From positions 1 to 64,000 of IMG/VR virus record IMGVR_UViG_3300025324_000011: a stretch of DNA of 64,000 nt; one strand, 5' to 3'. Each line of letters begins with the position of its first letter. The first letter of the stretch is position 1. Origin of the DNA: a virus. A program made the translations under genes and the position numbers. The notes under the pieces are model-generated. The model was not told the DNA's origin. It saw only the letters and a program-made list of their open reading frames with translations, and ran no database searches. Below, one piece after another: positions 6,496 through 53,444 of this stretch.

Positions 6496-6898
6496 CCCCT
6501 GGCCTTCGTTCCGTGATATTCAATCGCCCAATCGCCGCAGCTATCTCTTCCGCCGTCTTTCTTCCTATTCCATCAAGCTTAAGTAATTCACCGAGGCTCA
6601 ACTCGGATATGTCCTCCATGCAGTTAAGGCCGTGCGCACGCAGGGCGTTTGCTGCTCTCGTCGAAAGACCAGAAAGGCCGCTGAGCTGAGAGGCGATTAC
6701 TCGTACACCATCAAGGGGGACCAGCGTGCCACTGTCTCCGAACGGCGGATACGTCACCACGGAAAAGTCACCAATCTTTGCAACTGATTTCAACCGCAAG
6801 ATCTTGCGGCGCTCGTAAACCTTCGCGAAGTAGACCCCCAAGTAGAACCCGCCGATTGTGAAGATGATCCCGGAAACAATAATCATCAGGTTATCCAC
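6488..6898 (-). CDS. TM-anchored RNA polymerase alpha-CTD-like (HhH) protein
   Basis: N-terminal TM; GLSTRAANAL...ELLKLDGIGRKTAEEI fits the alpha-CTD pattern LSVRSxNCL...ELLKxxNLGxKSLxEI. Confidence 0.7.
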   Translation of the reverse strand: MDNLMIIVSGIIFTIGGFYLGVYFAKVYERRKILRLKSVAKIGDFSVVTYPPFGDSGTLVPLDGVRVIASQLSGLSGLSTRAANALRAHGLNCMEDISELSLGELLKLDGIGRKTAEEIAAAIGRLNITERRPGDG

Positions 6899-7172
6899 TT
6901 TGTAGCCTCCCTCGATCGCCTACCATCTCATCTTGGAAAAAATGGACGCCAGCTGCCCGCTGTCAACACCGAGTATCCGCAAGAAGCCGATCCTGTCAAC
7001 CGCAATGATCCGCGCCCACAACAGCAATTCACCGCGGCATTGCGGGTCGAGTTTCATCCGATCTCGGTTGCACCACTCGCAGGCGGTGTCAGCAAAGTGT
7101 GGTTCCTCGCATTTTCTGCAGCGTATGACATGGCGCGTTTTCTCCTCTTGACCTTGACCGGTGCCCATTCTC

Positions 7173-7973
7173 TCACTGCTCATTTTGCAGGCCGTCTCGG
7201 CGGCTATGGGTTATCACCTCTACCACTAGCCCGCCTCCGCGCAAAAGGCGTGCGAAGTCTTTCAGCGCCGCAACGTTCTCCGCGCGCGCGTCGTCGGTTT
7301 CTCCCATCTCGTCATCGAGCGGAACATGCAGCCTTCCACCAGACCATTCAATCGATGCCGAGTGTTTGACGATATCTATACTGATCACATTGCCACCTTT
7401 CTCAATTTGCCCCTCTACGTCGCGCGCGAGGGAGACGATGGCGCGCGGTATTTGCGATAGGCTAGCAACCCTGGCTTCCGCAAGAGCATCAACGGGACTC
7501 CCATCTATCTCGATTTTCCAACGATGCGCTGGATGCCAAGAGATAATGAGCTCGGCACGATTATCCAGCCGGCGGCGAAACTCGATCAAGGCTTGAGCGA
7601 ACGAGACGGGTACCGCATCATGATCCGATGATTCTTCTTGCGGTCCGCGATATTCAATCGCCACAACGATAACGCGACCCCCATCAATTGAGCCGACTGA
7701 ATACACCCGCCAATTGTTGGACTTGGCTTCGTCGAACATGTCAAAGAAGCGGCGCGGCGCTGGCTTAAAGTCCGCAAATGGATCATTTGGATTCAACTCA
7801 ATTAGGCACTCAATCTGCTCAATCAGGTTAAGCGAAAGTAATTCTTGCGTCATTGCGCAGCTCGCAAGGTTGTTCTCCAGGCACTGCGCGACCCATTGCC
7901 CGCTCTGCTGAAACACAACCGCCCTTAGCGCTATCACCATTTCCTGGCTGATCAGTTTACTGCTTGCCATCAT
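7173..7973 (-). CDS. hypothetical protein with HicB-like N-terminal domain
   Basis: VVFQQSGQWVAQCLENNLASCA resembles the HicB partial RNase H fold. Confidence 0.45.
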   Translation of the reverse strand: MMASSKLISQEMVIALRAVVFQQSGQWVAQCLENNLASCAMTQELLSLNLIEQIECLIELNPNDPFADFKPAPRRFFDMFDEAKSNNWRVYSVGSIDGGRVIVVAIEYRGPQEESSDHDAVPVSFAQALIEFRRRLDNRAELIISWHPAHRWKIEIDGSPVDALAEARVASLSQIPRAIVSLARDVEGQIEKGGNVISIDIVKHSASIEWSGGRLHVPLDDEMGETDDARAENVAALKDFARLLRGGGLVVEVITHSRRDGLQNEQ

Positions 7974-7989
7974 GGCTCCCTCGTTTCCA

Positions 7990-8229
7990 CTATTGCGTTA
8001 ACTCAAACGGATCGCTCGTAAACAATGCAATGGGGCTCTGTGTGGCGCCCGATCGAACGCTAACCCAGATTGGCTTTCCGGCCGCGATATCTGCTAATTC
8101 ATCAACCGATGGGCGCCAGCAGGAAATGCACCTCTCGCCGTCCGTGAAAACGTGGAGATGGCCGCAGTCGTCCAGGGAATCAGGGGGACCGAGAATGCGA
8201 TTTGACTGCGGAAATCGGCTTGGTGTCAT
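7990..8229 (-). CDS. hypothetical phage protein
   Basis: ORF downstream of a TTGACA-17-TAAGAT promoter; ISCWRPS..EL motif. Confidence 0.6.
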   Translation of the reverse strand: MTPSRFPQSNRILGPPDSLDDCGHLHVFTDGERCISCWRPSVDELADIAAGKPIWVSVRSGATQSPIALFTSDPFELTQ

Positions 8230-8250
8230 TTCATGGATTCCGTACTGGCA

Positions 8251-8279
8251 ATCTTACGCTAAGTCAGCTCGGTTGTCAA
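8251..8279 (-). promoter_or_regulatory. sigma70-type promoter
   Basis: TTGACA-17 bp-TAAGAT on the minus strand. Confidence 0.7.
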
Positions 8280-8651
8280 GCTTCCGACGCCGAGGTTAAA
8301 ACTCTCCGGTTGGTTAAGAATCTATCGCTTTTGGCCAGTCGGAAGCTGACAGCTCGGGAGAGATCATCAAGCAATGGTGGGCGCGCTTCCGCGCTACCGT
8401 CGCTTCCAAGCTTCGAACCTGACGGACGGTCAACGCGATTGATTTGCGGATCTGCCGCATGCCGTTATGGCGAGGAATCGCCGGAAGCGGATCATGGCAT
8501 CCACAGACACAAGGACCCGCCTCGGTTGCGATCCAACCGCAGCGAATTCTGGCGCCGGGGCCAGGACGGGGACAAAACGGACAGGGCACAATAGCCTCGT
8601 GTAAATACCTTCTCGCACACGAGGCAGTGTGCCACTATAGTAGTACACATG

Positions 8652-9434
8652 TCAAGCCCTTTCGTCGAAAGATCTTTGGCAATCAGCGCAACAGGGACGA
8701 CGGCTTGCGGTCGTGAGCCGCATGGTCGTCTCTTCACCGCAACAAAAGCACCGAAGAATACGCGGGATCGGCCGAGACGCGCTCCTAGTATGATATTGCT
8801 CTGCTGGACTCCGAGGCGGCTGCGGTTCTGTAATTCGATTGTTTCGCGCGAAGGTACGGGAGGCTTGTTTATTGAGCCTCGCTCGCTCACGGGCCTCAGC
8901 AATGATACCGGGATCAAGTCTCCCATCGCTGAGCGACCACTGCGAACGCATGCTGAAGCCGTCTACCTTGATTAAATTTTTCTTGGTCGCCTTTTTCCGA
9001 GCGCCATAAAGCAGTCCATCGTCTGTGAATCCAGAAGCCCTAAGCTCCGCTAGGGCACTGCGCCCACTCATGCTCCCGCCGTTTTTCCTGAGTATTCTCA
9101 GGATCGCCGAGACGCAAGCATCCACCTCGCGGGAATCGCGCCAGCTAAGCCGTTCACGACGCGGTAAGAATTTCACGTTGAATCTCGCGTTCTTGATATC
9201 CTGTCCGTCGCCAATAAACCAGACGGCGGCAGAGGTATTCCCGGAGATCGAAATCTTGGCCCGAATGCGAGCCCTGCGGATAACCTTCATCCCGAATCCG
9301 CGCGCCCTCAATTCGCCGACAATCCATGTTGATCGCTGCGGTCCGCGTTTTCGCAGTAATTCGATGGCGAGCGCAGCGCATTGCTCAGTTTTACTCATTG
9401 CTTGGTCTGCGGTGAAGAGCGGTCCGCTTGCCAC
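8652..9434 (-). CDS. putative DNA-binding protein (repeated wHTH-like units, C-terminal CxxC/CxxC)
   Basis: Two similar basic helical segments; CFCC...CADC. Confidence 0.45.
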   Translation of the reverse strand: MASGPLFTADQAMSKTEQCAALAIELLRKRGPQRSTWIVGELRARGFGMKVIRRARIRAKISISGNTSAAVWFIGDGQDIKNARFNVKFLPRRERLSWRDSREVDACVSAILRILRKNGGSMSGRSALAELRASGFTDDGLLYGARKKATKKNLIKVDGFSMRSQWSLSDGRLDPGIIAEARERARLNKQASRTFARNNRITEPQPPRSPAEQYHTRSASRPIPRILRCFCCGEETTMRLTTASRRPCCADCQRSFDERA

Positions 9435-17448: not shown

Positions 17449-17579
17449 TTAAGTGGCTAGAACTATCAACCACCGGCCGCGACCAAATCGAACACCGACC
17501 CACGACCCCGGCAGGATGAGCTGCGGCAGCTTTCAATTCTTTTGGTTGGATGGGCAAAAAACGGAGTGATGATTTAGCG

Positions 17580-18857
17580 ATGAGTCTGCGAACCTATCTC
17601 GTTGGCGGCGCTGTTCGCGATCGCCTCATGGGTCTAGGGCCGAAGGACATGGATTATGTCGTCGTCGGCTCAACACAGGAGGAAATGCTCGCTGCTGGAT
17701 TTCGCGAAGCGGGCGTCGGCTTTTCTTCCTATTTGCATCCCACTAACGGCGATCAATACGCACTGGCACGGCGAGAGCGGAAGAGCGGAAGCGGCTACCG
17801 CGGATTCGTGATTGAATCAGGGCCAGAGGTAACGTTGGCGGAAGATCTATACCGCCGCGATCTAACGATAAACGCAATTGCACAAGATCCAAATAGCGGA
17901 GAGATCATTGACCCTCATGGTGGGCGGCGAGACATCCAAGAGGGCGTTTTGCGTGCCGTCAACCCCGGAGCGTTTGCCGATGATCCAGTGCGCGTCCTCC
18001 GGCTCGCTCGGTTCGCCGCTCGTTATCCGTCGCTTACCGTCGATCCGCAAACCATGCTTTGCGCTTCCGAGAGCGTGCGCGGCGGCGAGCTTGAGCGAGA
18101 GCCAGCAGAGAGGATATACGAAGAATGCTCGCTGGCTCTTTGCGGGTCGCGTTCGCCGTCTCGCTTTTTTGAAATACTCTCTGATCTAGGTGCGCTGCGT
18201 CATATTCTACCAGAGGTAGAAAATCTCAAGGGGATTGAGCAACCAAAGCATGGACACCATGAAGGCGACGCCTTCCAGCACACCATGATGGTGATAGATT
18301 CCGCCTCGTGGCGAGAAGACAATCACCCACGTATTATGTGGGCTGCGCTTCTCCATGACATCGGAAAAGCACTTACGCCGCGCGAGGAGTGGCCCGCTCA
18401 TCATGGACACGAAAAGGCGGGAGAGCCATTGGTGCGCCAAGCGCTGGGCCGCCTACGGGCTCCACGTGACGTTCTGAATTTCGCGGCCGTCACCTGCCGT
18501 CAACATATGCGCGCTCATAAATGGTGCGAGCTGCGGGCTGGCACGATCCTGGAAATACTTGAAGAGATGAGTTATCTTCGCGAGCCGGCGGCGATCGATG
18601 ATTTCTTGGATGCCTTCGATGCCGATACACGCGGGCGAGCCATGCCCGTAGACGAGAGTGATTTGATCGCACGCAGGCTATTTTTCAGATCCGCGCAAGC
18701 CGCAGCGGCCTCGATTCATGCCCGCGATCTTTTGGCCGATCGCGCGTTGCATGGTCGCGAAGAGAAGCCTCCCGGGCCGTGGGTCGGTGATATGATAAGA
18801 TCCGCAAGGATCAGGGCAATCAAGTCGATCAAGAAAGTTGCTATTCGCCATGTCTAG
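17580..18857 (+). CDS. cca: multifunctional CCA tRNA nucleotidyltransferase with HD domain
   Basis: YLVGGAVRD..KDMDYVV, EDLYRRDLTINA, DDPVRVLRLARF, HHEGD..H, LLHDIGK. Confidence 0.93.
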   Translation: MSLRTYLVGGAVRDRLMGLGPKDMDYVVVGSTQEEMLAAGFREAGVGFSSYLHPTNGDQYALARRERKSGSGYRGFVIESGPEVTLAEDLYRRDLTINAIAQDPNSGEIIDPHGGRRDIQEGVLRAVNPGAFADDPVRVLRLARFAARYPSLTVDPQTMLCASESVRGGELEREPAERIYEECSLALCGSRSPSRFFEILSDLGALRHILPEVENLKGIEQPKHGHHEGDAFQHTMMVIDSASWREDNHPRIMWAALLHDIGKALTPREEWPAHHGHEKAGEPLVRQALGRLRAPRDVLNFAAVTCRQHMRAHKWCELRAGTILEILEEMSYLREPAAIDDFLDAFDADTRGRAMPVDESDLIARRLFFRSAQAAAASIHARDLLADRALHGREEKPPGPWVGDMIRSARIRAIKSIKKVAIRHV

Positions 18858-19797
18858 CCGCGTCTGTGAATTGGCTGGCCGCGGTCTAATCTCGCCGCCG
18901 AAGTGGCTTCCGTCGAACGTCCATTACGAGACGATAGCTGGCGGCTTGTCTTACGGAACGAGCGATGACGATTCGGATTTCGATGTCCATGGATTCGCAA
19001 TTCCTCCCCGCGACTTGATCTTTCCTCATTTAGCGGGAGAGATTCCAGGCTTCGGGAGACAAGTCAAGCGATTTGAGCAATACCAGCAGCACCATGTCTT
19101 AGACAGGGATGCCCTCGGCGGCCGTGGCCGCATGTTCGATCTATCTATCTACTCCATCGTGAAGTACTTTCACCTCACGATGGAGGGCAACCCGAACATG
19201 ATAGATTCTTTGTTCACGCCAATGAATTGCGTGCTGCATGCTACCCTGATAGGGCAGCGCGTTCGCGAACAGAGAAAAATATTTTTGCACAAGGGATGCT
19301 TCCACAAGTTCAAGGGTTACGCCTTCGCTCAGCTCCACAAGATGCGCGGTCAGCGCGAGCGATTAGAAGGAAAGCGGAAGGAAGAAGCAGAAAGATTCGG
19401 CTTTGACGTAAAGTTTGCAGCGCACGTCGTTCGTTTGTTGGATGAATGCGAGCAAATCCTGGAAACCGGAGATCTAATTCTAGGCAGGAACCGCGAGGAA
19501 TTGAAGTCGATCAGGCGCGGCGAATGGGCCGAGGATCAGATCAGAGATCTTTTCACGCGGAAAGAGGCTCACTTGGAGGAGTTGTATAAATCATCGCCAC
19601 TTCCTCATGGGCCAGATGAGCCGAAGATAAAAGCGCTGCTGCTCGAATGCCTTGAGCAGCATTACGGATCGCTTTCTGCGGTTATAGTCCTTCCCGATGC
19701 GAGCAAGCAGGCGCTCGCTGAAATCTCGCAAATCCTCGTTCGTTATGAAGCATCTGAATCATTGATACAGGGAGACGAACTACGCAATGGAAGATGA
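18850..19797 (+). CDS. RlaP-like Pol-beta superfamily nucleotidyltransferase
   Basis: GGLSYGTSDDDSDFD, GNPN, FKGYA..QL, FDVKFAAHVVRL..EELKSIRRGEW. Confidence 0.8.
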   Translation: MSSRVCELAGRGLISPPKWLPSNVHYETIAGGLSYGTSDDDSDFDVHGFAIPPRDLIFPHLAGEIPGFGRQVKRFEQYQQHHVLDRDALGGRGRMFDLSIYSIVKYFHLTMEGNPNMIDSLFTPMNCVLHATLIGQRVREQRKIFLHKGCFHKFKGYAFAQLHKMRGQRERLEGKRKEEAERFGFDVKFAAHVVRLLDECEQILETGDLILGRNREELKSIRRGEWAEDQIRDLFTRKEAHLEELYKSSPLPHGPDEPKIKALLLECLEQHYGSLSAVIVLPDASKQALAEISQILVRYEASESLIQGDELRNGR

Positions 19798-31028: not shown

Positions 31029-32048
31029 ATGGGCGGTTCAAGCTACTCTCACGATGCATACTCAGCACGTGCGGCGTTTCGCGTTGCAAGCGCTACTCCA
31101 GTGTTCAAGCATGACTCAGACGTCCGCACGGGTAAGGCCGCTGCCGCCGTGCATGCCAACCTGAATCCCTATAACGTCAAACTGCGGGAAAGCCGGGATT
31201 CCGAAGAGCATGCAACAACGATCCCGATCGGCATTCTACTCGACACCACTGGCAGTATGGCTGAGGTGCCGAAAATCATCGAAGCGCGTTTGCCGCGTCT
31301 CATGGGATCATTTCTCGACGACAAGGCGAGCGGGAAGCGGTATCTCGGCGATGGATATCCCGCCATCCTCATCGGCGCAGTAGATGATTACGATGCTCAA
31401 ATCCGATGCGGCTACTCGCCGTCCGCTTCTGGATGTCTTCAGGTCGGACAATTCGAGAGCGGCATTGAAATCGACAACGATCTAGAGCGCCTGTGGCTCA
31501 CTGGTCACGGAGGGGGCACTTACGAGGAATCATATCAGCTCGGCATCTACTTCTTCGCTCGCCATACAGCACATGATCACTTCGAGAAGCGCGGCAGAAA
31601 GGGGTATCTATTCATCATCGGAGATGAGCACGCCTACGGAACGGTTGCCGCCTCAGAGGTCAAGGATGTTATCGGCGACACCATACAAGCAGATATTCCG
31701 CTCGCAAGCATCCTCGCTGAGGCTGGCCGCTTGTATCACACATTCTTTATCCTCCCGAATTTGACGCAACATTACGGAGACGGTAATCTCCGCGCCTACT
31801 GGATGAAACTGATCGGTCAACAAAACGTGATTCTCTTGGACGATCCAGAGAAGGTCTGCGAAGCAATCGTCTCGGCGGTTGCTCTCTGCGAGAGGCACGT
31901 CGGGATTGCGGATCTAGTTGGTGACGGCGTTGCCTCTGGAATCGAGAATGCGCTGGTGCCGCTGTCTGCATCTACGGCAGTTGCGCGCTTCAGTGCTGAC
32001 GCCCTGCCAGTCATAGATGGCGAAGGCGGCGAGATCGATCGCCTATGA
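31029..32048 (+). CDS. vWA (MIDAS) domain protein
   Basis: LLDTTGSM MIDAS, LQVGQFES, GGG..ESY, FIIGDE. Confidence 0.8.
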   Translation: MGGSSYSHDAYSARAAFRVASATPVFKHDSDVRTGKAAAAVHANLNPYNVKLRESRDSEEHATTIPIGILLDTTGSMAEVPKIIEARLPRLMGSFLDDKASGKRYLGDGYPAILIGAVDDYDAQIRCGYSPSASGCLQVGQFESGIEIDNDLERLWLTGHGGGTYEESYQLGIYFFARHTAHDHFEKRGRKGYLFIIGDEHAYGTVAASEVKDVIGDTIQADIPLASILAEAGRLYHTFFILPNLTQHYGDGNLRAYWMKLIGQQNVILLDDPEKVCEAIVSAVALCERHVGIADLVGDGVASGIENALVPLSASTAVARFSADALPVIDGEGGEIDRL

Positions 32049-33250
32049 TCGCCTATGCGGTCGCCGGAATGGCCTTCGGTGACGAAGGCAAGGGAGTAGT
32101 AACGGATTATCTATCCCGTCGCTTCGCAGCAGACATAGTGATCCGTTTCAACGGCGGCTCGCAGGCTCGGCACAACGTCATAACGCCATCGGGCATTCAT
32201 CATACCTTTGCTCAGTTCGGCGCCGGAACGCTGGCCGGCGCCGCGACTTTTCTTTCTCGCTTTATGCTAGTGGAACCGTGCGCGCTCTTGCATGAAGCAG
32301 CGACGCTCGCGCGCAAGGGAATCGCGGCCCCGCTTTCTCGAATGACGATTGACCCGGAATGCGTCATCGTCACGCCGTTCCATCGTTACGCAAACCGTCT
32401 TCGCGAAACAGCGCGCGGAAGCATGCGCCACGGATCAGTTGGACAGGGGATAGGCGAGGCGCGCTCCGATGAAATTGATGGATTAGCGTTACGTATAAAG
32501 GATCTATCAGAGAATCCGCGAGCCATATTGTCTCGTATTCAAGAAAAGAAGCTAGCAGAACTTGAGGCGATTTCTGGGGCTGACGCGAATCTCTATGAAG
32601 CGATTCGCAAAGAGAACACAGAATCACTGATTTCTGTCTATAGTCTCATGCTCCAGGCCGTTACGATCTCTCCGGCGCGGAGGGCGCTGAGTTCCGCAAG
32701 ACAAGCTATTTTTGAAGGAGCGCAGGGTGTGCTCTTGGATGAGATTCACGGCTATGCTCCCTACAACTCATGGACCGATTGCACATTCGGTAACGCGGTA
32801 ACTATTGCGGATGAGATGGGCTGGTCTCTGAATAAAGTAGGAGTTTTTCGTTCTTACTTCACGCGCCATGGAGCTGGACCGTTCGCCACGGAAGATAGCT
32901 CCCTTCGCGCGCCAGAGCCCCACAATGGAGCACATCCATGGATGGGGGAATTTCGCTGCGGTCATTTCGACATGATGGCAGCGCAATATTCCGCGAGAAT
33001 TGCGCGTCCCGACGCATTAGCCGTCACGCACATGGATCGCCGCCCATCCAATAAAGTTGCGATTGAATACAATGGCGGATTACCGAGGTATAAGGATGAA
33101 CCGCATTTGATCCGGGCAATGAATCAATCGCTCGGCGTTGAAATCGAATATCAATTCTTCGGCCCTACCGCCTCATACGGCAGGGCATTGCGAGACGAGA
33201 GAAGGCGCCGCCTTGATTACGCTGGACAAGCGATCCATTCAAACGCTTGA
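32045..33250 (+). CDS. adenylosuccinate synthetase-like protein (divergent)
   Basis: FGDEGKG, RFNGGSQARH, FEGAQGVLLD, TRHGAGPF, THMD. Confidence 0.85.
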   Translation: MIAYAVAGMAFGDEGKGVVTDYLSRRFAADIVIRFNGGSQARHNVITPSGIHHTFAQFGAGTLAGAATFLSRFMLVEPCALLHEAATLARKGIAAPLSRMTIDPECVIVTPFHRYANRLRETARGSMRHGSVGQGIGEARSDEIDGLALRIKDLSENPRAILSRIQEKKLAELEAISGADANLYEAIRKENTESLISVYSLMLQAVTISPARRALSSARQAIFEGAQGVLLDEIHGYAPYNSWTDCTFGNAVTIADEMGWSLNKVGVFRSYFTRHGAGPFATEDSSLRAPEPHNGAHPWMGEFRCGHFDMMAAQYSARIARPDALAVTHMDRRPSNKVAIEYNGGLPRYKDEPHLIRAMNQSLGVEIEYQFFGPTASYGRALRDERRRRLDYAGQAIHSNA

Positions 33251-45858: not shown

Positions 45859-46167
45859 CTACGTAAGATCGAGATTGAGAACGGACATCAGCTCGTTCAC
45901 GATCTCGACGAGGGCATCCTCATTCGCCGTATACGGTCGCGCCTGAGCATCCCGCCGCGTCGTCACCAGCCCGCCGGCCTTGAGCTTCGCTAGGTGTTGT
46001 GAGACCGCCGAGAGCGAGATCTTGGCATGCTCCGCCAGATTCCCGACCCCGGTCTCTCCATCCGCGCGCAGCTTGGCGAGCATGCTGAGGCGGCTGGAAT
46101 TCCCGAGCAGATTCACCGCCTCTGCCAGTTCATAGATGTCCATCGTTTCCTTGGTCTTCTTTGCCAT
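45859..46167 (-). CDS. ArsR/SmtB family regulator
   Basis: LGNSSRL..VGNLAE..SAVSQHLAKLKAGGLV..RR...Y. Confidence 0.9.
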   Translation of the reverse strand: MAKKTKETMDIYELAEAVNLLGNSSRLSMLAKLRADGETGVGNLAEHAKISLSAVSQHLAKLKAGGLVTTRRDAQARPYTANEDALVEIVNELMSVLNLDLT

Positions 46168-48918: not shown

Positions 48919-50041
48919 ATGAGGTTCGCATCGGTTTGCTCGGGGTGCGGAGGGTTTGACCTTGGCCTTGAGCAAGCGGGCCTGCGATGCGTCGTACAAA
49001 TCGAGATCAATAAGCAATGTTTCTCAGTTCTGGAAAAGCATTGGCCTTATGTTAAGCGGTTGAAAGATCTCTATGAGACGAAAGCGGAAGATCTTCCAGC
49101 CGTTGATGTTTTCGCAGGAGGAACACCCTGCCAGGATCTCTCGATTTCTGGACGCCGTGCGGGATTGGATGGAAGCGAATCCAGACTCTTCTACGAATTC
49201 GTTCGCCTCGCTGATTCGCAGCCTGCCGCTGCGGTTCTCTGGGAAAACGTCCCTGGCGCTTTCACCTCCTCGGAGGGAGAGGATTTTGCGATCATCCTCC
49301 GAGAACTCAGCGGATACTATCCTTCCGTCCCGATCGGAGGATGGAGAAATTCAGGCTTCTGCGTTGGACATTAAACGATACGTGCTCTGGCGCGTGCTGG
49401 ACGCTCAATACTTCGGAATTCCACAGCGACGCCGTCGCGTCTTCGTTGTTGGATTGCCTCGAAACGGGGAGCGGGGAAGAATTCGAGGCGTACATCCAGA
49501 GATACTTTTTGACGAAACGAGCCTGCGCAGGCATCCTCCGTCGAGCCTTGAAAAGGAACAGACCGTTGCCCCATTACTTGGAGGAAGCCTTGGCGGCCAC
49601 AGAATAGGAGCAGAAGAGGCGGCAGGCGGGCATCTAATTAGTCACACCGTCACCACCCGCAGCGGTATGCATCATGATCCAACAAGCGACACATTCATTG
49701 TCCATACCCTGACAAGTGAGGGGGCGGACGCGAGCGAAGACGGCACAGGACGCGGCCTTCCGCTTGTTCTCGGAACTCTCGCTGCCTCATACGGAAAACA
49801 AGCAGGGAGGGACTTCGAGGTGTCGGATAATTTGATCGTTGCTCGCCGTCGCGTCCGGAGGATAACACCGATTGAGGCTGAGCGCTTGCAGGGCTTCCCA
49901 GATCATTGGACTAAGCATGACTCGAACGGTCGGAAGTTATCGGATGCGTCACGCTATCGAATGATAGGTAACGCGGTAGCCGTGCCAGTCGCAAAATGGA
50001 TAGGATCTCGTTTAATTCAAGCAGTGGAGGATTCGCAATGA
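48919..50041 (+). CDS. dcm: C5 cytosine DNA methyltransferase split by a +1 frameshift near 49369
   Basis: Motifs I (SGCGG), IV (GTPCQ) and VI (ENV) in one frame; VIII (QRRRRVF), ITPIEAERLQGFP and X (IGNAV) in the next. Confidence 0.85.
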
Positions 50042-50359: not shown

Positions 50360-50812
50360 CTAGGTAGATTTCTTCCTCATCGATTCAATCCTTTCCCGTA
50401 GCTCTTCGATCGTCGTTGCGCTATCCTCAAGGGATGCCTCAGCGAGATCAGCCCTAGTCCTAAGTTCCTTGACCTCTTCCTCGAGCAGAACGGCGTATTT
50501 GGCGCGCGGGCGAAGCTCTGCGACCTCTTCTCGCAGCGCCGCTAGTTGCGTTTCCGCCGCATCGAGTCTCGCCTCTAAGGTGGCTTGTCTCTTTTCGTAC
50601 CTATCAAGTAATTGGCTGACTCGACCGAATTCCGATGTATCTTTAGCCGTAAGAACCTGCGTTTCCAACACAGCAGCATCTGCAATCATCTTGCGAGCTT
50701 CTGGGCGACGAAACATAAAGGTACGAAGCAGGGCTAGCAGCGTGGCTAATCCACCTCCAGCGACTACGGACACGAGGACTGTAACCCAGCCCGGGGTTGA
50801 CGGTTCCGCCAC
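50360..50812 (-). CDS. TM + coiled-coil protein (lysis-region-like)
   Basis: N-terminal TM and a long heptad region. Confidence 0.6.
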   Translation of the reverse strand: MAEPSTPGWVTVLVSVVAGGGLATLLALLRTFMFRRPEARKMIADAAVLETQVLTAKDTSEFGRVSQLLDRYEKRQATLEARLDAAETQLAALREEVAELRPRAKYAVLLEEEVKELRTRADLAEASLEDSATTIEELRERIESMRKKST

Positions 50813-51229
50813 TCAGGAATGCCTTGCTTTCTCGCGGTCTAGATCGATCATTAGGGTGCGGACTTTTTCAACCATCTCATCATAATCACTCATCGCTTGG
50901 CGGATTGGCCGCACTGCGCGATGAAGCACAATGCCAGCAATAAGCGAGACAACCGCAGTCAAGATTAGCATTCCCGATTCGAGTCCGTAGTAGGGCTGGA
51001 AGATGACAACGACGCCAATCAAATGGGAGATCCCGCAGAAGGCGATGAATACCGATGCTAGCATCCATAGCGCAGGCTGCGGTATTTTTGACTGCGATGA
51101 AAGAACTCTTACAATCGAAACGGGGATCCAGGTATAGGCAATAAAAATCAGGACGTTGCCTATGATGATAGCCCACAGAAGAACTGGATCAGAAATACAA
51201 GATTCCCGAGCGATCGATAAAACTTCCAT
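50813..51229 (-). CDS. stand-alone ethylene-receptor-like 3-TM sensor domain
   Basis: LIFIAYTWIP, VFIAFCGISHL and LTAVVSL match the ETR1 FIAIAYFSIP / AFIVLCGATHL / LTAVVSC pattern. Confidence 0.7.
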   Translation of the reverse strand: MEVLSIARESCISDPVLLWAIIIGNVLIFIAYTWIPVSIVRVLSSQSKIPQPALWMLASVFIAFCGISHLIGVVVIFQPYYGLESGMLILTAVVSLIAGIVLHRAVRPIRQAMSDYDEMVEKVRTLMIDLDREKARHS

Positions 51230-51247
51230 CTCCTTCCCTTTCCACTC

Positions 51248-51514
51248 TTACGCTGGAGATCGGGGACGATTTCGCGTTACTGCGGCGCGGATGCCCCAGA
51301 GGCCCAGGGCAGTCGCTACCGCCTCACCGACCTTGTAAAGATCGAGGTCGCCTCGGAAGTAGCCGGCGAAGGCCAACGCCACCAGCGTGGCGACGGCGAG
51401 CAGGGTTTTCAAGCCCGGCAACGGATCGCTTGGAGTACCGAGCTTGATCCTGCGGCCTCGGCGAGGCTTGCCGAGGCCCTTGGGGAGATATGGCGCTGTT
51501 GGGTGGTGTGGCAT
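51248..51514 (-). CDS. holin-like 2-TM protein
   Basis: GLKT + TM + LGLWGIR. Confidence 0.55.
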   Translation of the reverse strand: MPHHPTAPYLPKGLGKPRRGRRIKLGTPSDPLPGLKTLLAVATLVALAFAGYFRGDLDLYKVGEAVATALGLWGIRAAVTRNRPRSPA

Positions 51515-51816
51515 GGCTTAGAGCTCCTCGGGCGGCTCAAGATAGCCAAGATCGAAGATGATCTGCCGCAGCTCGCGTCGCACGGTGCGGTTCAACTCTA
51601 CCAGGCGTTCCGAGGCAGCCTGAGCCTGCGCGGTGCCCTTTCGCGCTGCGGTCGGTTCGAGATCGAGCGGCAGGGGGCGGAGGCGGTCTAGCACCTTGGT
51701 GGCGGCCTCGAAGGAGATGCCGATTTCTGAGGCGAGGGCTCTTGCCGCTGCCGGCGGGGGGCAGCAGAGATACAGCCAGCAGCACGGACTACCGAGCGAC
51801 GATTGAGGCACCCTTT

Positions 51817-52164
51817 CTATCCTCCCAGCTTCGCAAGTCCAGAGAAGACTCGGACATTGATCTGCTCTTGATTGGCCATCTTTTCCTCCATAACGGAGAT
51901 GCGCCCACCGAGAGAGGAGACGCGCTCTTGGTATCGCACCAACTCCACGGTCGCCGTCTGATTGGCCGTTGTGGACTTCTCGATCGCGGCCTGAAGCTCG
52001 CCAACCTTTGTCTCGAGACCGTTGAGCCGCATCGAGGCGACGCCGAGCAAAAAGATCCAGCCGACGACGCCCAAGATGACCCCCGGGCTGATCCACTGTT
52101 TGAGATATTCCATCGCTCGATCACCCATGGCGGTAGCCTCCTGCATGGACGGAGTGTCGCTCAC
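51817..52164 (-). CDS. TM + coiled-coil protein
   Basis: VILGVVGWIFLLGV followed by heptads. Confidence 0.55.
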   Translation of the reverse strand: MSDTPSMQEATAMGDRAMEYLKQWISPGVILGVVGWIFLLGVASMRLNGLETKVGELQAAIEKSTTANQTATVELVRYQERVSSLGGRISVMEEKMANQEQINVRVFSGLAKLGG

Positions 52165-52441
52165 GGCCCTGCTGCCGCCCTGCGGCTACCCCTGGCCTGA
52201 TAGAGGTGAACCGAGAAGGCCAAACCGAGGGCCAAGATCTCGGCGCCCCAAACGGTTGCCAGGAGAATGAGAAGATTTGCGGTCACGTGGCGATGGCCCT
52301 CCGCAGCTTCAGGCCCTTCTCTTTGTCTCTAGTGAATCGAAAATACAGAAACACAGAGACGCAGAGCGCCACGGCAAGGGGTGCAACCACCCTGAGCATG
52401 GCGAAGTAGTGCACTGCCTCAGTAACATTCGGATGGATCAT
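52161..52441 (-). CDS. two tiny single-TM ORFs (52283-52441, 52161-52286)
   Basis: MIHPNV..VAPLAVALCVSVFLYF and VTANLLILLATVWG..; GTGA overlaps. Confidence 0.45.
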
Positions 52442-53372
52442 CGGATGAAATCCTCATTGCGGTTAAAAAAAGAGCCAAGGCGACAACCGGAGGAGGAACG
52501 AAACCTTCGCCTTGGCTCTGTCGAAACCACCACTCTTTCACCGCCGCCCCCTCGCTTCCGCCCGTGATAGATGCGCCCTCTTAGATTCGCGGATGGCAGC
52601 CTGAGGAAACCCTTCGACTTCCGACCATTCTCCGTCATCTGCCAAGGCTGCCCATTTTCCGTCTCGACGCTGCAACCGATCTGTCATTAGATAGGATACA
52701 ACTTCAGCATCGTCCGCCACAACCCGAGATGCGAGCATCTCGGTCAACCGTTCCTCGGTCGCCAAGATCGCCTCTTCGGGAGTAGAAAACCCGGTGCCGG
52801 CCGCATGGAGAGAGGTGAACGATCCACCGCCTTCTGCGATTTTGCACAGCCACAAGGAGGAATCATGGCCGATGGGCTCGGGCCGCATACGGATGCCTTG
52901 AGCAAGACGCGCGACCATTACGGCGAACGGATTGGGTGCTACGGCCATCGGTCTCTATTCTAGAACCACTGCGGCGTTTGATGCAACCCGAAGGATGATG
53001 GGCAGTGATCGGACCCGCACTTAAAGCTCACTGCGTATTGAGCGATGTCTATCCACTTTTCCGAACCGCATCCGATATTCCTGCTCCATGTGCCAGCAGT
53101 TTCTCGCTCAGCTCCCTTACCTTATCCATCAACCACAGCATGGCCTCCCGTTCGCGAAGGTAGTGGCCGCAAGGGAGTCCGTTATCTCTATTCCATGCAA
53201 TCTTCCCGTTTAGCCATTGGACGCGAGTCAAGGTAATCTTGAATACCCCATCTTCATTGATTTGTAGGTAGGACCTCCGCCTCCCTCTTCTATCCGCTGA
53301 AGGCGCTCAGCTTGGCGCATCTTGTTTCGTTGGCGAGATGCAATGGACATGATGCAACCTCCGAAGTTGAAG

Positions 53373-53444
53373 TGGGGCCAGCAGGGATCGAACCTGCGAC
53401 CATCCGCTTAAGAGGCGGCAGCTCTACCGCTGAGCTATGGCCCC
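53373..53444 (-). tRNA. tRNA-Lys(CTT), 3' CCA not encoded
   Basis: GGGGCCA acceptor stem, D arm GCTC/GAGC, anticodon loop CTCTTAA, T loop TTCGATC; followed by CTT. Confidence 0.92.

Follow-up and report, generated by a model that had tools for sequence, protein, structure and literature searches.

A stand-alone ETR1_N membrane protein and its translationally coupled coiled-coil partner in an uncultured tailed phage

To our knowledge, work on the ethylene-binding domain has been confined to its role as the input module of kinases or other signaling proteins from plants, cyanobacteria and a few proteobacteria. What, then, would such a domain do in a phage that encodes it with no output module attached? 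This question is raised by a gene in a 64,000-nucleotide stretch of viral DNA (hereafter the window) comprising the first 64 kb of the IMG/VR virus record IMGVR_UViG_3300025324_000011, which has a total length of 96,984 bp, a CheckV completeness of 95% and an uncultured source. The gene encodes a small protein that matches the Pfam family ETR1_N and is followed directly by a gene, here called the partner gene, for a protein with one transmembrane (TM) helix and a coiled coil (Table 1). The ETR1_N-only gene is a variant of a known domain family, and full-text literature searches returned no description of a phage-borne or output-less ethylene-binding domain. Our preferred reading, to which we assign a probability of roughly 0.6, is that this is an intact accessory gene of a tailed phage and that its output-less product would form a two-gene membrane sensor or switch with the coupled TM and coiled-coil partner.

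The initial annotation of this locus, which was made from the DNA letters and a list of their open reading frames (ORFs), had proposed an ethylene-receptor-like domain, and profile searches bear this out. PF25487 (ETR1_N) matched residues 17-107 with E=1e-18 and 67.8 bits against a gathering score of 27, the match spanning 91 of the 97 profile positions, and a six-frame search of the record gave 68.3 bits. The gene is intact, with an AGGAG-type ribosome-binding site (RBS) and a positive codon-usage score. Hydropathy analysis recovered the three TM helices that had been described, and the sequence contains the three motifs, A31-Y32-x-x-I35-P36, F61-I62-x-x-C65-G-x-x-H69-L70 and L90-T-A-V-V-S95. 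An AlphaFold (AF2) model made with a 21-sequence alignment placed helices at residues 15-44, 52-75 and 81-137 with a mean predicted local distance difference test (pLDDT) score of 81.9; in this model TM3 is extended by a cytoplasmic helix of 35 residues that ends at residue 137. The predicted topology is N-out, with positive-inside charges at R41/K48 and after TM3. The lack of a GAF or kinase output also stands, the protein stopping 35 residues past TM3 with no such domain downstream. In an Atlas structure search, the Atlas's own model of the protein aligned with ETR1_N histidine-kinase clusters at template-modeling scores of 0.77-0.83. The Foldseek comparison that the initial annotation had recommended returned nothing below E=0.6 from PDB and BFVD, and its weak rows labeled 'holin' were generic helical hairpins. 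Sequence searches of PDB found no chain recognizably related to the ETR1_N domain.

In ETR1, Cys65 and His69 hold Cu(I), and Asp25 aids copper binding, bridges to Lys91 in helix 3 and relays the signal. The residues needed for ethylene binding, as reportedly defined by Wang et al. in 2006, are D25, Y32, I35, P36, I62, C65 and H69. That ethylene binding in ETR1 requires seven residues is documented (PMC11819568). Six of the seven are kept in the phage protein, with Tyr32, Ile35, Pro36, Ile62, Cys65 and His69 at ETR1's own numbering, and Cys11 is also present. The exception is position 25, where a profile alignment with 153 homologues confirmed the Asn that had been suspected from the sequence. 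The equivalent of ETR1 Lys91 is Leu88, and the loop between helices 2 and 3 is three residues shorter. When introduced into ETR1, D25N reduces copper binding in vitro to a residual level and increases the koff of ethylene by a factor of at least 100, although the receptor is functional in planta, and K91M and K91A have normal copper binding with minimal ethylene binding (~1% of wild type, measured for K91A) (PMC10266040). The phage protein therefore differs from a high-affinity ethylene receptor in the seven-residue set, in Lys91 and in the cytoplasmic output module. Judged from these residues, it probably binds Cu(I), with a weakened affinity for ethylene.

We asked whether the protein belongs to a family of its own or is the remnant of a larger receptor. 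When 1.84 billion representatives were searched exhaustively with a profile, 5,635 matched at E<1e-3. The protein's own cluster ranked first, and the next ten matches (hits 2-11) were all 123-160 amino acids (aa) long, and multi-domain proteins appeared from rank 12. Residue statistics were taken from a profile alignment of the top 154 representatives, 31 of them short and 123 long. Tyr32, Phe61, Cys65 and His69 were invariant (154/154), Ser95 was found in all but one gapped row, Thr91 of the phage protein was shared by all short forms and 122 of the 123 long forms, and the periplasmic Cys11 was near-universal. Asn25 occurred in 23 of the 31 short forms, and in 19 of these 23 the Lys91 position was occupied by L, C, M, I or V; Asp25 and Lys were paired in 72 of the 123 long forms. 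The conserved signatures of the clade itself are Arg8, Asn25 and a hydrophobic residue at 88, and identity to the best multi-domain matches is only ~30%. A FastTree phylogeny of 126 columns of the domain placed the phage protein in an all-short clade of 21 members nested in a 37-tip group (support 91) that contained 25 of all 31 short forms. On this tree, 10 changes of the 'short' label were required, compared with 28.7 in shuffles.

These data bear on the possibility that the gene is a relic, either a pseudogene left by truncation of a histidine kinase or a functionless three-TM ORF that arose by chance. The missing output domain would fit such an origin, as would the very short contigs on which many database homologues lie, since these homologues could be fragments. 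However, several short forms lie on long contigs (60,701, 140,949, 57,112 and 37,457 bp), and this, together with the tight clustering of lengths at 123-160 aa, argues that the short forms are not contig-end fragments. The close orthologues P0002, P0003, P0004 and L012, which share 52-61% identity with the phage protein, retain every key residue, the short forms make up their own clade, the functional residues are invariant across the 154 representatives, and the ORF itself is intact, with its RBS and coding-like codon usage. A relic is thus effectively refuted, and we regard it as extremely improbable. The initial annotation would have been undercut by a lack of profile similarity or by homologues that were only truncated kinase pseudogenes; instead, the 67.8-bit match leads into a coherent 123-160-aa family with conserved features of its own. 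By its sequence relationships, the ETR1_N protein is a member of a distinct, mostly stand-alone clade and not a truncated kinase.

The second feature that sets the gene apart is its neighbor. The partner is predicted to be N-out/C-in by the positive-inside rule, the net charge of the whole protein is -3, and Pfam and NCBIfam scans gave no enzymatic domain match. Its start codon, GTG, directly adjoins the TGA of the ETR1_N gene and, as the initial annotation had stated, lies in the same frame. This arrangement is not conserved, however. On L012, a 1.8-kb soil contig with the same gene order, a two-TM-like small ORF (identified by eye) precedes an ETR1_N gene whose product has 52% identity to the phage protein, and the partner orthologue that follows (51% identity) is joined to it by an ATGA overlap. 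On L020 (Joint Genome Institute, JGI, contig Ga0105239_10010946), a 10-kb piece of an unrelated phage, positions 6824-9349 hold a major capsid homologue, then an ETR1_N-only gene of the Asn25/Leu88 type (32% identity), then an ORF for a 123-aa protein with a TM segment and a coiled coil that begins in a TAATG overlap; the pair lies between capsid and head-tail genes. Since the junction varies in type, the conserved feature is translational coupling and not read-through. A fusion by TGA read-through was rejected because the in-frame junction is not conserved and because fusion would invert the partner's positive-inside topology. A further partner orthologue, P0156, is on a 60,701-bp contig, and the ETR1_N orthologue P0002 is likewise on a 60,701-bp contig. 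Thus, in each of the three contexts examined (the window, L012 and L020), a stand-alone domain of the Asn25 type shows translational coupling to a coiled-coil protein anchored in the membrane, and on this comparative evidence the ETR1_N gene and the 150-aa ORF are a conserved two-gene pairing.

Other viruses also carry the domain. A fixed-spacing DNA pattern for the conserved residues identified four more IMG/VR records (G001-G004, Table 1), all of which scored above the Pfam cut-off at 105-126 bits. The output-less forms among them (G001, G003 and G004) are of the Asp25/Lys91 type, with 105-122 bits. In addition, Atlas clusters of 146-162-aa ETR1_N proteins include members from Uroviricota. 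The occurrence of output-less forms in several viral records and in these clusters indicates that output-less ethylene-binding domains are a recurring, so far undescribed, phage accessory gene. A tblastn search of 50,697 GenBank phage records found no ETR1_N homologue, a genome-contig scan with P0011 recovered only a 467-aa kinase from a Vulcanimicrobiota metagenome-assembled genome, and a first metagenome scan yielded nothing. A Trp34-selective DNA pattern gave no match in IMG/VR and 18 loci in metagenomes, including L012 and L020. In five metagenome loci (L005, L008, L015, L006 and L018), a bacterial-type ETR1_N domain is fused to STAS-like (RsbR-type) or RsbW-like ATPase domains, as assigned by eye only; these look like output types beyond the usual histidine kinases. 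We rejected the idea that L005, L008 and L015 fuse ETR1_N directly to a bare coiled coil, as STAS-like domains were seen by eye at their C-termini.

The initial annotation had raised the possibility that the phage protein is a decoy, and the preceding results allow this to be weighed. As a decoy or modulator, it would form mixed dimers with ETR1_N sensor kinases of the host, silencing or locking them, such that biofilm, pili or motility is reprogrammed during infection. Potential targets abound, as the thousands of bacterial multi-domain proteins among the 5,635 representatives show, and ethylene receptors function in dimeric and higher oligomeric states. In plants, ETR1 truncated to its N-terminus can reportedly signal via other receptors, a result attributed to Gamble 2002 and Xie 2006. 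Bacterial ETR1_N kinases are known to control biofilm formation and phototaxis (PMC11819568), and the three viral Asp25/Lys91 stand-alone forms closely resemble kinase sensor domains, as their bit scores indicate. By contrast, a decoy should track the kinase of its host, whereas the clade of the phage protein is an old, separate and mostly all-short branch that is only ~30% identical to the best multi-domain matches and has its own signatures (Arg8, Asn25 and a hydrophobic residue at 88). The dedicated, conserved and co-translated partner likewise speaks against a decoy. These observations weaken the proposal, and we now consider it quite unlikely.

Returning to the preferred reading, we suggest how a two-gene sensor or switch could work. 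The ETR1_N protein would form a dimer, possibly linked by a disulfide via the conserved periplasmic Cys11, in which each protomer would hold Cu(I) at Cys65/His69. Without the Asp25-Lys91 bridge, the binding of ethylene, another small pi-ligand or a redox cue would be weak and its off-rate fast; the joint loss of Asp25 and Lys91 and the missing output domain lead us to infer a dimeric protein with Cu(I) sites, at which ligands bind weakly and exchange fast. The helix that continues TM3 would be the only route for a signal. It most plausibly packs against the coiled coil of the partner, so that a conformational change would pass to this coiled coil and not to a kinase. Our leading guess for the output is control of an inner-membrane event in infection, perhaps the timing of lysis; possible roles of the pair are control of lysis timing, superinfection exclusion or interference with host ETR1_N kinases. 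A specific form of this idea is that the Cu(I)-loaded output-less domain reads copper or redox status, or a gas such as ethylene or some other small molecule that is unsaturated or redox-active, and via the partner times lysis or another membrane event. We consider this form unlikely. If true, a virus would for the first time be seen to perceive a gaseous signal by means of a receptor-type domain.

Several observations weigh against the two-gene sensor or switch. The D25N change almost eliminates the in vitro binding of Cu(I) by ETR1 (PMC10266040), which makes the copper loading of an Asn25 protein uncertain. The linkage to a partner rests on three cases, and in one of these, L020, the downstream protein has no sequence similarity to the window partner, the pairing there consisting of architecture and coupling alone. 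Moreover, the viral genes of G001, G003 and G004 have no separate TM and coiled-coil partner.

The position of the pair brings in another explanation. The two genes end a run of eight head-to-tail ORFs on the minus strand, from 52948 to 50360 (Table 1). The initial annotation had placed the ETR1_N gene among at least five other small membrane ORFs, and hydropathy analysis agrees, with orfB, orfC, orfD, orfF and the partner all containing TM segments. OrfD has 12 homologues with 62-85% identity on other metagenomic contigs of up to 60 kb, with an invariant C-terminal KLGG, and is an unnamed, widespread phage membrane protein. At the position of orfF, L012 has an ORF that is alike in architecture and unlike in sequence. 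Because orfD is far more widely conserved than the ETR1_N gene, the ETR1_N pair looks like an accessory addition to a wider-conserved block of membrane ORFs. The hairpin between orfA and orfB looks like an intrinsic terminator just ahead of this block, and it could be a terminator or an antitermination site that gates the membrane-ORF run.

The initial annotation had read this run as a lysis-like cassette and had suggested a holin regulator within it. According to this explanation, the ETR1_N protein is a holin, an antiholin or a lysis-timing regulator in a true lysis cassette, copper or gas sensing gates hole formation or endolysin release, the partner is comparable to the Mu gp25 'releasin', and orfD and orfE are comparable to spanins. 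Seven small ORFs are consecutive on one strand, five of them with TM segments, and the terminator-like hairpin precedes the run as in late lysis operons controlled by antitermination. The topology of the ETR1_N protein derived from hydropathy and the AF2 model (N-out, three TM helices and a charged C-terminal tail) resembles that of class I holins, and the partner, like Mu gp25 (PMC9239132), has an N-out/C-in topology and an acidic domain in the cytoplasm. Profile matches in the same direction are weak: XhlA to the coiled-coil region of the partner (sub-threshold, E=2e-4), DUF2730 to the coiled coil only of the partner orthologues P0156 and P0157 (19.9 and 19.7 bits, below the cut-off of 24.9), and an Rz-like spanin PHROG to orfD (E=0.0067).

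However, no endolysin, holin or spanin family was found among ~120 ORFs of the 97-kb record with Pfam and PHROG scans, and none of five major endolysin families (Phage_lysozyme, Amidase_2, SLT, GH25 and Peptidase_M15_4) was detected in six-frame searches. The ETR1_N protein has no holin family match (Phage_holin_3_6, E=0.28; PHROGs, none), and holins do not normally keep invariant metal ligands. Two-component spanins (Rz/Rz1) combine an i-spanin whose coiled coil is periplasmic with an o-spanin, a lipobox-bearing lipoprotein of the outer membrane. OrfE, the other candidate spanin, lacks a lipoprotein signal, with neither a signal peptide nor a canonical lipobox. Every lysis-family match is below its cut-off and lies in a coiled coil, a region in which NCBIfam and PADLOC also returned only noise. 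Finally, the L020 pair adjoins a capsid gene and not a membrane-ORF cluster. The proposal of a lysis-like cassette is therefore unsupported, and we view it as unlikely. Membership in a defense system was also rejected, PADLOC having given coiled-coil noise only.

Table 1. Location and predicted properties of the ORFs and hairpin of the minus-strand run in the window, and of ETR1_N genes in four further IMG/VR records
Feature	Length	Location	Strand	Description
orfA	136 aa	52538..52948	-	Soluble; no family match; not recognizable as an endolysin
Hairpin		52464..52519	-	13-bp, GC-rich, then U7; between orfA and orfB; centroid stem, z=-2.2 (fold)
orfB	52 aa	52283..52441	-	One TM segment, basic C-terminus; predicted coding, plausible
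orfC	41 aa	52161..52286	-	One TM segment, basic C-terminus; predicted coding, plausible
orfD	103 aa	51817..52128	-	N-terminal TM helix and coiled coil
orfE	97 aa	51518..51811	-	Soluble; no family match; Cys/Pro-rich N-terminus; the GGAGG-type RBS overlaps the orfD end
orfF	88 aa	51248..51514	-	One clear and one possible further TM segment; strongly basic N-terminus (net charge +10)
ETR1_N gene	138 aa	50813..51229	-	Three TM helices; PF25487 match
Partner gene	150 aa	50360..50812	-	One N-terminal TM helix and cytoplasmic coiled coil
G001 (350-kb record)	139 aa	L031:5003-5422		Stand-alone ETR1_N
G002 (279-kb record)	371 aa	L024:2860-3975		HWE-type kinase-like C-terminal half, by eye
G003 (71-kb record)	189 aa	L032:4028-4597		Directly after tail-fibre-like genes
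G004 (54-kb record)	roughly 220 aa (start uncertain)	L033:4596-5405		Coiled-coil tail

The rest of the record identifies its source as a tailed phage. Pfam and PHROG scans found portal, major head, protease and tail tube genes and a tape-measure-like gene for 1,996 aa at 62-96 kb, and genes for replication and nucleotide metabolism, including a beta clamp, a helicase, methylases, a 5'-3' exonuclease and a PurA-like enzyme, at 28-50 kb. No close relatives were found among GenBank phages or in IMG/VR. The tblastn search of the GenBank phage records returned distant portal matches only, and peptide-pattern scans of IMG/VR with the ETR1_N protein, with alignments A1, A4 and A7 and with the portal protein gave no matches. 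The GC content at third codon positions (GC3) of the ETR1_N gene is 0.53, which is inside the range of the genome (mean 0.59, standard deviation 0.06); a recent horizontal acquisition of the gene was rejected on this ground.

Other genes of the window deserve brief mention. Regulators of the ArsR/SmtB type belong to a family that includes metal sensors, and one such gene (HTH_5, 38.5 bits) is found at 45859-46167 on the minus strand, a lone gene of this orientation within a plus-strand block, 4.2 kb from the ETR1_N gene. A C5-cytosine DNA methyltransferase at 48919-50041 on the plus strand is split into the overlapping ORFs 48919-49374 and 49073-50041, each matching a different part of PF00145; the split could stem from a frameshift, from a programmed shift or from an error in sequencing. 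At 32045-33250 on the plus strand lies a member of the adenylosuccinate-synthetase family (PF00709, E=3e-56), for which a PurZ-type role in 2-aminoadenine DNA may be considered. At 17550-19797, also on the plus strand, an HD-domain enzyme of the CCA-adding/poly(A)-polymerase family adjoins an RlaP-type nucleotidyltransferase, and the phage has a tRNA-Lys(CTT) at 53372-53444. These three elements suggest a set for tRNA repair or maintenance.

The coherent 120-160-aa family described here consists of the sensor domain alone and recurs in several unrelated uncultured phages, and in one clade it combines a dedicated co-translated membrane partner with the paired loss of the Asp25-Lys91 bridge. It offers a form of the domain that is minimal, small and probably easy to express, where sequence searches recognize no PDB entry for the domain, and it is a natural experiment on the role of the Cu(I) site when no kinase is attached. 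It may also represent a new route by which phages sense or manipulate the membrane environment of the host.

Comparison with known systems places the phage protein nearest to the ethylene receptors. Like class I holins of the lambda S105 type, it is predicted to be a small inner-membrane protein with three TM helices, an N-out/C-in topology and a charged cytoplasmic tail; unlike them, it has invariant metal-ligand residues and no adjacent endolysin, and there is no sequence or profile relationship. The partner resembles the Mu gp25 'releasin' (DUF2730, PF10805) in architecture only, with an N-terminal TM anchor, a predicted N-out/C-in topology and an acidic cytoplasmic domain. It differs in length (150 aa compared with 99 aa for gp25), its DUF2730 similarity is below the cut-off, no endolysin lies within five genes and the phage is not Mu-like. 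By contrast, the phage protein shares with Arabidopsis ETR1, Synechocystis SynEtr1 and Azospirillum AzoEtr1 the three-TM fold and Y32/I35/P36/I62/C65/H69 at identical numbering, as well as the TAxxS motif in helix 3, an N-terminal periplasmic Cys and the continuation of TM3 as a cytoplasmic helix. It departs from these receptors in having no GAF, kinase or other output, in having Asn25 together with Leu at the Lys91 position such that the Asp-Lys bridge is absent, in the helix 2-3 loop, which is shorter by three residues, and in being encoded by a phage gene paired with one for a separate coiled-coil membrane protein. Asn25 is shared with known receptor variants, namely ETR1 D25N, which is functional with a much lower affinity for ethylene, and cyanobacterial Asn25 forms (PMC10266040, PMC11971883). 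The published Asn25 forms are full-length, whereas the phage form also lacks Lys91 and the whole output, a combination that is typical of the stand-alone clade, with Asn25 in 23 of 31 short forms.

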